In this document: in pieces, positions 63,903 to 64,000 of the stretch
How the letters are laid out: every line of letters starts with the position of its first letter
Position numbering within the stretch: the stretch's first letter is position 1
Sequence record: BK061308.1
DNA length: 64,000 bases
Source: Mycobacterium phage prophiFSAT01-1
Direction: 5' to 3' (one strand)
The notes under the pieces: model-generated
The model's input: the letters and a program-made list of their open reading frames with translations, nothing else
Databases searched by the model: none
Told to the model about the DNA's origin: nothing
Made by a program: the position numbers and the translations under genes

Positions 63903-63938
63903 CAGGGCTAGCTACAGGATGACCTGCAGCTAGCCCTG
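63903..63938. repeat. 16-bp stem hairpin (CAGGGCTAGCTACAGG-ATGA-CCTGCAGCTAGCCCTG)
   Basis: Near-perfect inverted repeat immediately 3' of the tRNA fragment. Confidence 0.55.
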
Positions 63939-63956
63939 AAACAGCCTCTGAGCTGT

Positions 63957-64000
63957 GCGCCGTCAGGGGCTCGAACCCCGGACCCGCTGATTAAGAGTCA
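63957..64000 (-). tRNA. tRNA-Lys(CTT), 3' portion only (anticodon loop to acceptor 3' strand); 5' part lies beyond the window edge
   Basis: The minus strand reads TGA-CTCTTAA-TCAGC GGGTC CGGGG-TTCGAGC-CCCTG ACGGCGC A. This gives an anticodon loop with U33 and anticodon CTT, a 5-nt variable loop, a T-arm with GTTCGAG, and a 7-nt acceptor strand. Confidence 0.55.

Follow-up and report, generated by a model that had tools for sequence, protein, structure and literature searches.

The attR junction of the Mycobacterium abscessus prophage prophiFSAT01-1 in a tRNA-Lys gene, with a palindromic P arm that contains candidate integrase arm-type sites

The right end of prophiFSAT01-1 was analyzed in a window of 64,000 nucleotides (the whole stretch of DNA under study, from record BK061308.1), which ends in the 3′ portion of a tRNA-Lys gene on the minus strand (Table 1). 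This fragment reads TGACTCTTAATCAGCGGGTCCGGGGTTCGAGCCCCTGACGGCGCA and contains 3 bp of the anticodon stem, the anticodon loop, the variable loop, the T arm, the 3′ acceptor strand and the discriminator A; the anticodon loop CTCTTAA (CUCUUAA) gives the anticodon CTT at 63995-63993. A tRNA-Lys 3′ half with this anticodon had been predicted at the window edge with a length of 44 nt, the actual length being 45 nt. The near-perfect 16-bp hairpin of the same prediction is also there (arms of 16 nt, 94% complementary, with a 4-nt loop), although it does not directly adjoin the tRNA but begins 17 nt past its 3′ end; its pairing is perfect except for one G.U pair on the tRNA-sense strand. Both the tRNA fragment and the hairpin are far above chance and are conserved in related prophages. 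Other Rfam matches in 63700-64000 (mir-143, sR14 and others) were rejected, being far under their gathering scores and corresponding to the hairpin.

The first prophage gene inside the junction has the same orientation as the tRNA and codes for a homolog of the product of prophiFSIL01-1 gene 99. It precedes a WXG100/polymorphic toxin/immunity cassette (roughly 60123-63474), which is strongly expressed in lysogens (PMC8191103). Within this region, positions 62000-63477 (the N-terminal part of a 750-aa toxin and a WXG100-like gene) match prophiT37-1, a prophage that is otherwise unmatched, at 91.6% identity; the features there are annotated as 'PE-PPE family type VII secretion target protein' and 'polymorphic toxin immunity protein', indicating exchange of the toxin cassette between prophage lineages. 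Two further elements were observed here: a small hairpin (AGCGCC/GGCGCT, 63865-63883) between the candidate arm-type sites described below and the first gene, kept in McProf and, with one stem change, in prophiFSIL01-1; and a 12-bp direct repeat, CTGGTTCGCGGG, at 63676-63687 and 63851-63862, 175 bp apart.

Table 1. Features of the attR end of the window and of the attL-side P′ arm. Positions are those of the window unless another stretch is named (L004, attR-side host-contig stretch; L005, attL-side host-contig stretch; L017, Logan contig DRR493684_2440).
Feature	Position	Strand	Basis or remark
First prophage gene inside attR, 82 aa, unknown function, same orientation as tRNA	63578..63826	-	ORF list
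Candidate arm-type site P1 (AGCTACAG)	63898..63905	+	8-mer enumeration
16-bp hairpin/palindrome (P2, P3 and 7-bp outer stem extension)	63903..63938	-	Arms 63903-63918 and 63923-63938, loop 63919-63922
Candidate arm-type site P2 (AGCTACAG)	63910..63917	+	12 bp from P1; hairpin left arm
Candidate arm-type site P3 (AGCTGCAG on minus strand, one mismatch)	63924..63931	-	Inverted relative to P1 and P2; hairpin right arm
Phage-supplied 3′ trailer of the rebuilt tRNA gene	63939..63955	-	attR (L004) against empty site (L017)
attR common core, 3′ portion of tRNA-Lys(CUU)	63956..64000	-	Rfam truncated tRNA match; identical attL copy
Putative strand-exchange zone (anticodon stem-loop part of core)	63981..64000	.	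prophiFSIL01-1 attL/attR differences
Candidate arm-type sites P′1 and P′2 (AGCTACAG)	L005 5399 and 5410		Between attL core and int; 11 bp apart

Within the window, the Rfam tRNA model matches the fragment as a 5′-truncated copy (model positions 28-71 of 71, E 0.008) whose score of 23.7 bits lies under the gathering cut-off of 29 bits, a result that would fit a fragment of a tRNA gene encoded by the phage, or a tRNA-like sequence arising by chance, with no attachment site involved. This explanation is refuted by the surrounding DNA. The 5′ half of the tRNA is host DNA directly past the window end, and ARAGORN, which finds no tRNA in the 64-kb window because the gene is cut at its edge, reports on the host-extended sequence a complete tRNA-Lys(ctt) (L004 9799-9872) made of this host 5′ half and the last 45 nt of the window. 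The core is duplicated as a perfect 45/45 direct repeat at attL (L005 5259-5303), beside a tyrosine integrase gene, the identity running over 48 bp with the flanks included; no tRNA was found at attL itself. Finally, an empty site exists in another strain: in the uninfected contig DRR493684_2440, reached through a search with the flanking L,D-transpeptidase and an identical-protein lookup, left flank, core and right flank are contiguous and 285/285 positions are identical to the reconstructed attB, with an intact 76-nt tRNA-Lys gene (L017 3409-3484). The original prediction of a prophage attachment junction at tRNA-Lys, with the 5′ half beyond the window, is thus borne out by the host sequence, by the repeat at the other prophage end and by the uninterrupted locus. 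Its suggestion that cluster F-like phages use this site also holds, since TDanisky and Sparkdehlily (cluster F) bear the same core beside their integrase genes, as do DS6A and phages of cluster K; use of a tRNA-Lys attB, Msmeg_4746, has been reported for Tweety (F1) and Pixie (K3) (PMC3203893).

The window end is therefore the attR junction of prophiFSAT01-1 within the tRNA-Lys(CUU) gene attB-18, and this junction has already been published (PMC9434293), so that finding it is correct but ordinary. In that description (G3, 2022), prophiFSAT01-1 (BK061308) is assigned to cluster MabR and placed on contig 1 at 2,104,368-2,172,096 (67,729 bp) in attB-18, with the tRNA-Lys Mab_t5022c as target and the 45-mer core given as the attL/attR sequence (PMC9434293). 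The host contig, found via the exact product of the ORF at 63578-63826, is FSAT01000001.1 of GCA_900131665.1 (M. abscessus strain 280, assembly FSAT01), and the prophage coordinates and length computed from its attR-side and attL-side stretches equal the published values; the window corresponds to prophage positions 3,730-67,729, i.e., the final 64,000 bp. The records of McProf, prophiFSIL01-1 and prophiFVLQ01-1 all stop at the base equivalent to 64000 and that of McProf also starts with the same 45-mer, which indicates that the window edge is a record trimmed at the att core and not a random cut. Synteny places the window among the McProf-like prophages (cluster MabR) of M. chelonae and M. 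abscessus. McProf (BK061309) is the best match among the phage collection (~92%), covering 93% of the first 25 kb of the window at 91.8% identity, with window position 1 equivalent to McProf 3741. It comes from another host species, M. chelonae, in which overexpression of the excise led to excision and to an intact, sequenced attB (BMC Microbiol 2021; PMC8191103). The two prophages share an identical 45-bp core, the same hairpin, the same AGCTACAG repeats and an attR overlapping a leftward tRNA-Lys gene, and differ in one compensatory pair swap and one G.U-to-A-U change, as well as in the 82-aa gene, which McProf lacks. Neither the exact attR junction nor the attL host flank with the core had a match in a genome-contig collection holding one genome per species, and the exact junction was not found in IMG/VR, where a scan with the core only returned two M. 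chelonae-type attL junctions, informative on the native M. chelonae terminator and on the P′ arm. The terms arm-type and terminator are absent from both papers (PMC9434293 and PMC8191103), and attP is mentioned only as a PCR target in PMC8191103 and not at all in PMC9434293. Beyond the published junction, the additions made here are modest: the analysis of arm-type motifs, the lack of an encoded CCA in the rebuilt tRNA-Lys gene and the idea of a dual use of the hairpin.

The native tRNA-Lys gene encodes its 3′ CCA (L017 3409-3411), whereas the rebuilt gene has CAG in its place (63953-63955; GCGCA-CAG versus GCGCA-CCA), ARAGORN giving lengths of 76 nt at the empty site and 74 nt at attR, so that lysogens would have to add the CCA enzymatically. 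A second tRNA-Lys gene, Mab_t5030c, is listed in PMC9434293 and, having the same anticodon region, probably provides redundancy for the rebuilt one. The trailer that follows contains a stretch, GCCTCTGAGCTG, common to the attP of cluster F phages, the match to TDanisky starting at 63944. Since the attL and attR cores of prophiFSAT01-1 are identical, the crossover is not placeable from this prophage alone. In prophiFSIL01-1, the attL and attR cores (L006 1-45 and the last 45 bases of L001) differ at core positions 14, 15 and 25, and the attR version is that of the other MabR prophages and was taken as phage-derived; all three differences lying to the left of the zone given in Table 1, the crossover would be to the right of position 25, and comparison of these cores suggests that strand exchange takes place in the anticodon stem-loop part. 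The same three differences make the rebuilt tRNA of prophiFSIL01-1, a prophage that occupies the second tRNA-Lys gene (attB-22), a host/phage chimera in its T arm.

Another tRNA-like junction was observed in prophiFSQJ01-1 (BK061312), whose right end (L010 955-1000, minus strand) matches the tRNA model as a 5′-truncated copy with the anticodon UUU at 35.2 bits, above the Rfam gathering score, and whose attL core (L009 1-43) is by appearance a second tRNA-Lys(UUU)-like 3′ half with paired, stem-compensating changes; its site, attB-23, is filed in the published table inside a protein gene, Mab_0771c (PMC9434293). A fecal contig labeled 'Bacteriophage sp.' (MT835505) was rejected as an att site, for it holds a complete actinobacterial tRNA-Lys gene with its own terminator.

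The enzyme responsible is in all probability the tyrosine integrase of 482 aa encoded at L005 5476-6924, 172 bp away from the attL core. Matches were obtained with Phage_int_SAM_3 (1.3e-14), Phage_int_M (4.6e-11) and the phrog_1 integrases (1e-61), while the Pfam catalytic domain falls slightly under its cut-off (25.7 versus 27.1 bits); R253, R426 and Y458 are invariant in an alignment with annotated tyrosine integrases. The protein is 39-41% identical to the cluster F and K tyrosine integrases tested, and the corresponding integrases of McProf, prophiFVLQ01-1 and prophiGD43A-1 are 96%, 84% and 44% identical to it, respectively. An arm-binding N-terminal domain has been described for this integrase family (PMC10865867). 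The Pfam arm-binding domain had no match in this integrase at E <= 0.01; residues 110-263 match structures of lambda Int weakly (best E 0.023), and about 110 residues precede this region, which weakly resembles the core-binding domain of lambda Int. The MabR integrases also carry a 48-aa N-terminal extension containing Cys and His (MRCPTPQLKGY...YECDCGAWHLTPR, L005 5476-5620), which is absent in the homologous cluster F and K integrases and whose sole match is phrog_3424, a PHROG of unknown function.

Enumeration of 8-mers in the attP reconstructed from both ends brought out a single repeated motif. AGCTACAG alone among the 8-mers occurs two or more times in each arm, any such 8-mer appearing in 0/5000 shuffles, and five copies of the motif lie in ~260 bp of attP. 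In the 64-kb window it is found only at 63898 and 63910, together with the inverted one-mismatch copy at 63924 (0.77 expected). P3 is perfect in McProf and prophiFSIL01-1, and in prophiFVLQ01-1 the motif has changed in concert: all five copies there are AGCTGTA, P3 reading TACAGCT, and the palindrome is kept. In prophiFSQJ01-1, AAGCTACAC appears twice in the P′ arm with one degenerate copy in the P arm and no hairpin, so the inverted P3 is not universal. Phages of other lineages have motifs of their own (TAGGGTGA in TDanisky, GGGTACAC in Keshu, MacnCheese and Nergal, GGCTACA in DS6A and GTAGGCGGGA in prophiGD43A-1), and yet the position of the repeats is maintained: the P′ pair lies at +92 to +107 bp from the core in 9/9 attP sites measured (five MabR prophages, cluster F/K phages and DS6A) and the P-arm repeats are 12 bp apart in TDanisky, Keshu/MacnCheese and DS6A. 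By inspection, the repeats of prophiGD43A-1 form pairs that are inverted in the P arm and direct in the P′ arm; in this prophage, in Keshu and in Nergal an inverted copy likewise gives rise to a palindrome. For this integrase family, the core has been described as flanked by pairs of arm-type sites (PMC3203893, PMC10865867), and the pattern of the AGCTACAG copies, by analogy with them, suggests that they are arm-type sites to which Int would bind. As the hairpin arms are copies of the motif found on the other side of the core, they are marked as candidate integrase sites, and the mutual inversion of P2 and P3 is what is read as a hairpin.

The repeats could instead be operators of a transcription regulator acting on int on one side and on the toxin cassette on the other, since the P′ pair lies ~56 bp upstream of the int start and the palindrome precedes the leftward gene block. 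This is very improbable: AGCTACAG was not found in the repressor-cro intergenic region, which also argues against an immunity operator, nor in the rest of the window or the flanks; the position relative to the core is kept over four phage lineages with different motifs and homologous integrases; and such pairs are attributed to Int in published work (PMC3203893, PMC10865867). Besides these repeats, a tandem repeat of AACATAGT separated by GC (L005 5369-5386, ~65-85 bp from the core) is kept in 5/5 MabR prophages despite the change of motif, and at the equivalent place the attP sites of clusters K and F contain tandem repeats of their own, spaced by 10 bp; the AACATAGT repeats are candidate excise (Xis) sites.

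The original prediction regarded the hairpin as a typical replacement terminator supplied by the phage, and several observations are in line with a purely terminating function in which the likeness to the int-side repeats is incidental. In the native loci of M. abscessus and M. chelonae each tRNA-Lys gene is followed by a strong hairpin, and cluster K phages (Keshu, MacnCheese, Nergal) supply at this attB a canonical U-tract terminator, right after the tRNA end and between the P-arm sites and the core. The structure itself is stable: an 86-nt RNA of the tRNA sense has a folding energy of -40.5 kcal/mol, shuffles giving -24.1 +/- 3.0 (z = -5.4; 0/200 shuffles as good), z ranges from -5.4 to -7.9 in four MabR prophages, and McProf, prophiFSIL01-1 and prophiFVLQ01-1 retain the hairpin with compensatory changes. 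The stem outruns the repeated motif, a toxin cassette expressed in lysogens lies downstream in the same orientation (PMC8191103), and the imperfections in prophiFSAT01-1 and prophiFVLQ01-1 are G.U pairs only on the tRNA-sense strand, a point of little weight as it would arise by chance with a probability of ~0.25. Nevertheless, no U-tract follows the stem, the tail being UAGCUUAGAAAG, and mycobacterial RNA polymerase has been reported to need one (PMC3993855); a consensus terminator scan of L004 9400-10700 gave 0 sites. A scan for sigma-70 promoters between the tRNA and the first phage genes also found none, a consensus that tells little about mycobacterial promoters. A terminator gives no reason, moreover, for arms that copy a motif found twice beyond the core and co-varying across phages. 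Cluster F phages and DS6A use the same attB with no strong hairpin in their attP, and cluster K phages hold their terminator in addition to separate arm-type repeats that include an inverted pair. The MabR element thus shares with a canonical intrinsic terminator a stable, GC-containing hairpin downstream of an RNA gene and differs from it in lacking a U-tract, in standing 17 nt from the gene end and in having arms that appear to duplicate a protein-binding motif. The hairpin is therefore probably not a canonical terminator, a purely terminating function being improbable, and its primary identity is likely to be that of the candidate arm-type sites P2 and P3.

Whether the palindrome has a further function at the RNA level depends on how its outer stem is read. 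The hairpin potential could be a mere by-product of two inverted arm-type sites: the direct-direct-inverted layout also exists in cluster K attP sites with a separate canonical terminator, a U-tract is absent, and prophiFSQJ01-1 manages with no hairpin at all. On the other hand, complementarity extends 7 bp outward past the motif, and in the comparison of prophiFSAT01-1, McProf and prophiFVLQ01-1 the outer stem shows three double compensatory changes outside the motif and no disruptive change. The P′ copies do not share these outer positions, and binding of Int thus leaves the extension unexplained. A by-product without RNA-level function is accordingly somewhat unlikely, and a secondary role as an RNA hairpin on the tRNA-sense transcript, to which the compensatory changes point, is put forward only tentatively. 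Such a role would matter because the toxin-immunity cassette downstream is co-oriented and expressed in lysogens: the hairpin may act at the 3′ end of the rebuilt tRNA transcript as a barrier, as a processing signal or by weak termination ahead of the cassette. A more general proposal, rather doubtful as it stands, is that in the tRNA-Lys prophages of M. abscessus (MabR and the MabA1 prophage prophiGD43A-1) arm-type sites and post-tRNA hairpin form one dual-use element, in which an inverted pair of Int sites would have been extended into a long stem serving as a 3′ barrier or processing signal that insulates the toxin-immunity cassette or tunes read-through into it.

The hairpin in the P arm of prophiGD43A-1 (GTGTAGGCGGGA/TCCCGCCTACAC; attR, last ~110 bases of L018) has a relationship of its own to the host. 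Its arms equal the P′ repeats of that prophage (GTAGGCGGGA twice), and it is homologous to the hairpin that follows the host tRNA-Lys gene, with 32/60 ungapped identity to the host flank (L017 3352-3411; also L005 5199-5258) and 0/20,000 shuffles reaching this value. Two origins are conceivable, capture of the host hairpin by the phage or descent of the host hairpin from the P arm of a phage; arm-type specificity and the host terminator sequence may also have co-evolved.

In the attP of heterobivalent integrases such as those of lambda and L5, arm-type sites to which the N-terminal domain of Int binds lie on both sides of the core, and integration of L5 restores the 3′ end of a tRNA gene. The MabR attP is like them in the layout of core and flanking candidate sites, in the tandem repeats (candidate Xis sites) between the core and one arm and in the restored tRNA 3′ end, and differs in the number, orientation and spacing of the sites. 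It is closer to the attP of Pixie (K3) and Tweety (F1), which have a tRNA-Lys(CTT) 3′ core of ~45-49 bp adjoining int (PMC3203893); Pixie-like sites also have an extra inverted arm-type copy on the left, and the motif differs among phages with the same core (AGCTACAG in MabR, GGGTACAC in K and TAGGGTGA in F). Unlike cluster K, MabR has no U-tract terminator between the P-arm sites and the core, and its inverted pair is extended into a 16-bp stem.

Taken together, the order along attP is P1-P2-(inverted P3), the 17-nt trailer, the core of 45-48 bp, the tandem AACATAGT, P′1-P′2 and int. A lambda-type tyrosine integrase would have recombined this attP, whose core duplicates the 3′ part of the tRNA, with the host gene. 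At attR the host 5′ half and promoter are now joined to the phage 3′ part into an intact tRNA-Lys, and the displaced host 3′ part, with the native CCA and hairpin, lies at attL, 67.7 kb away. By analogy with lambda and L5, the N-terminal domains of Int would bridge arm sites and core in the intasome. The best overall explanation, to which we give a probability of about 0.8, is that the window ends in the attR of prophiFSAT01-1 and that the hairpin is its P arm with candidate Int arm-type sites and not a canonical terminator.

Neither the encoded CCA nor the native hairpin is retained by the tRNA-Lys gene rebuilt on integration. The map of candidate arm-type sites in the MabR attP would be useful for the design of integration-proficient vectors for M. 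abscessus, and it is a testable idea that the palindrome of the P arm may also serve as an RNA hairpin, upstream of a toxin cassette that has been linked to antibiotic-resistance phenotypes.
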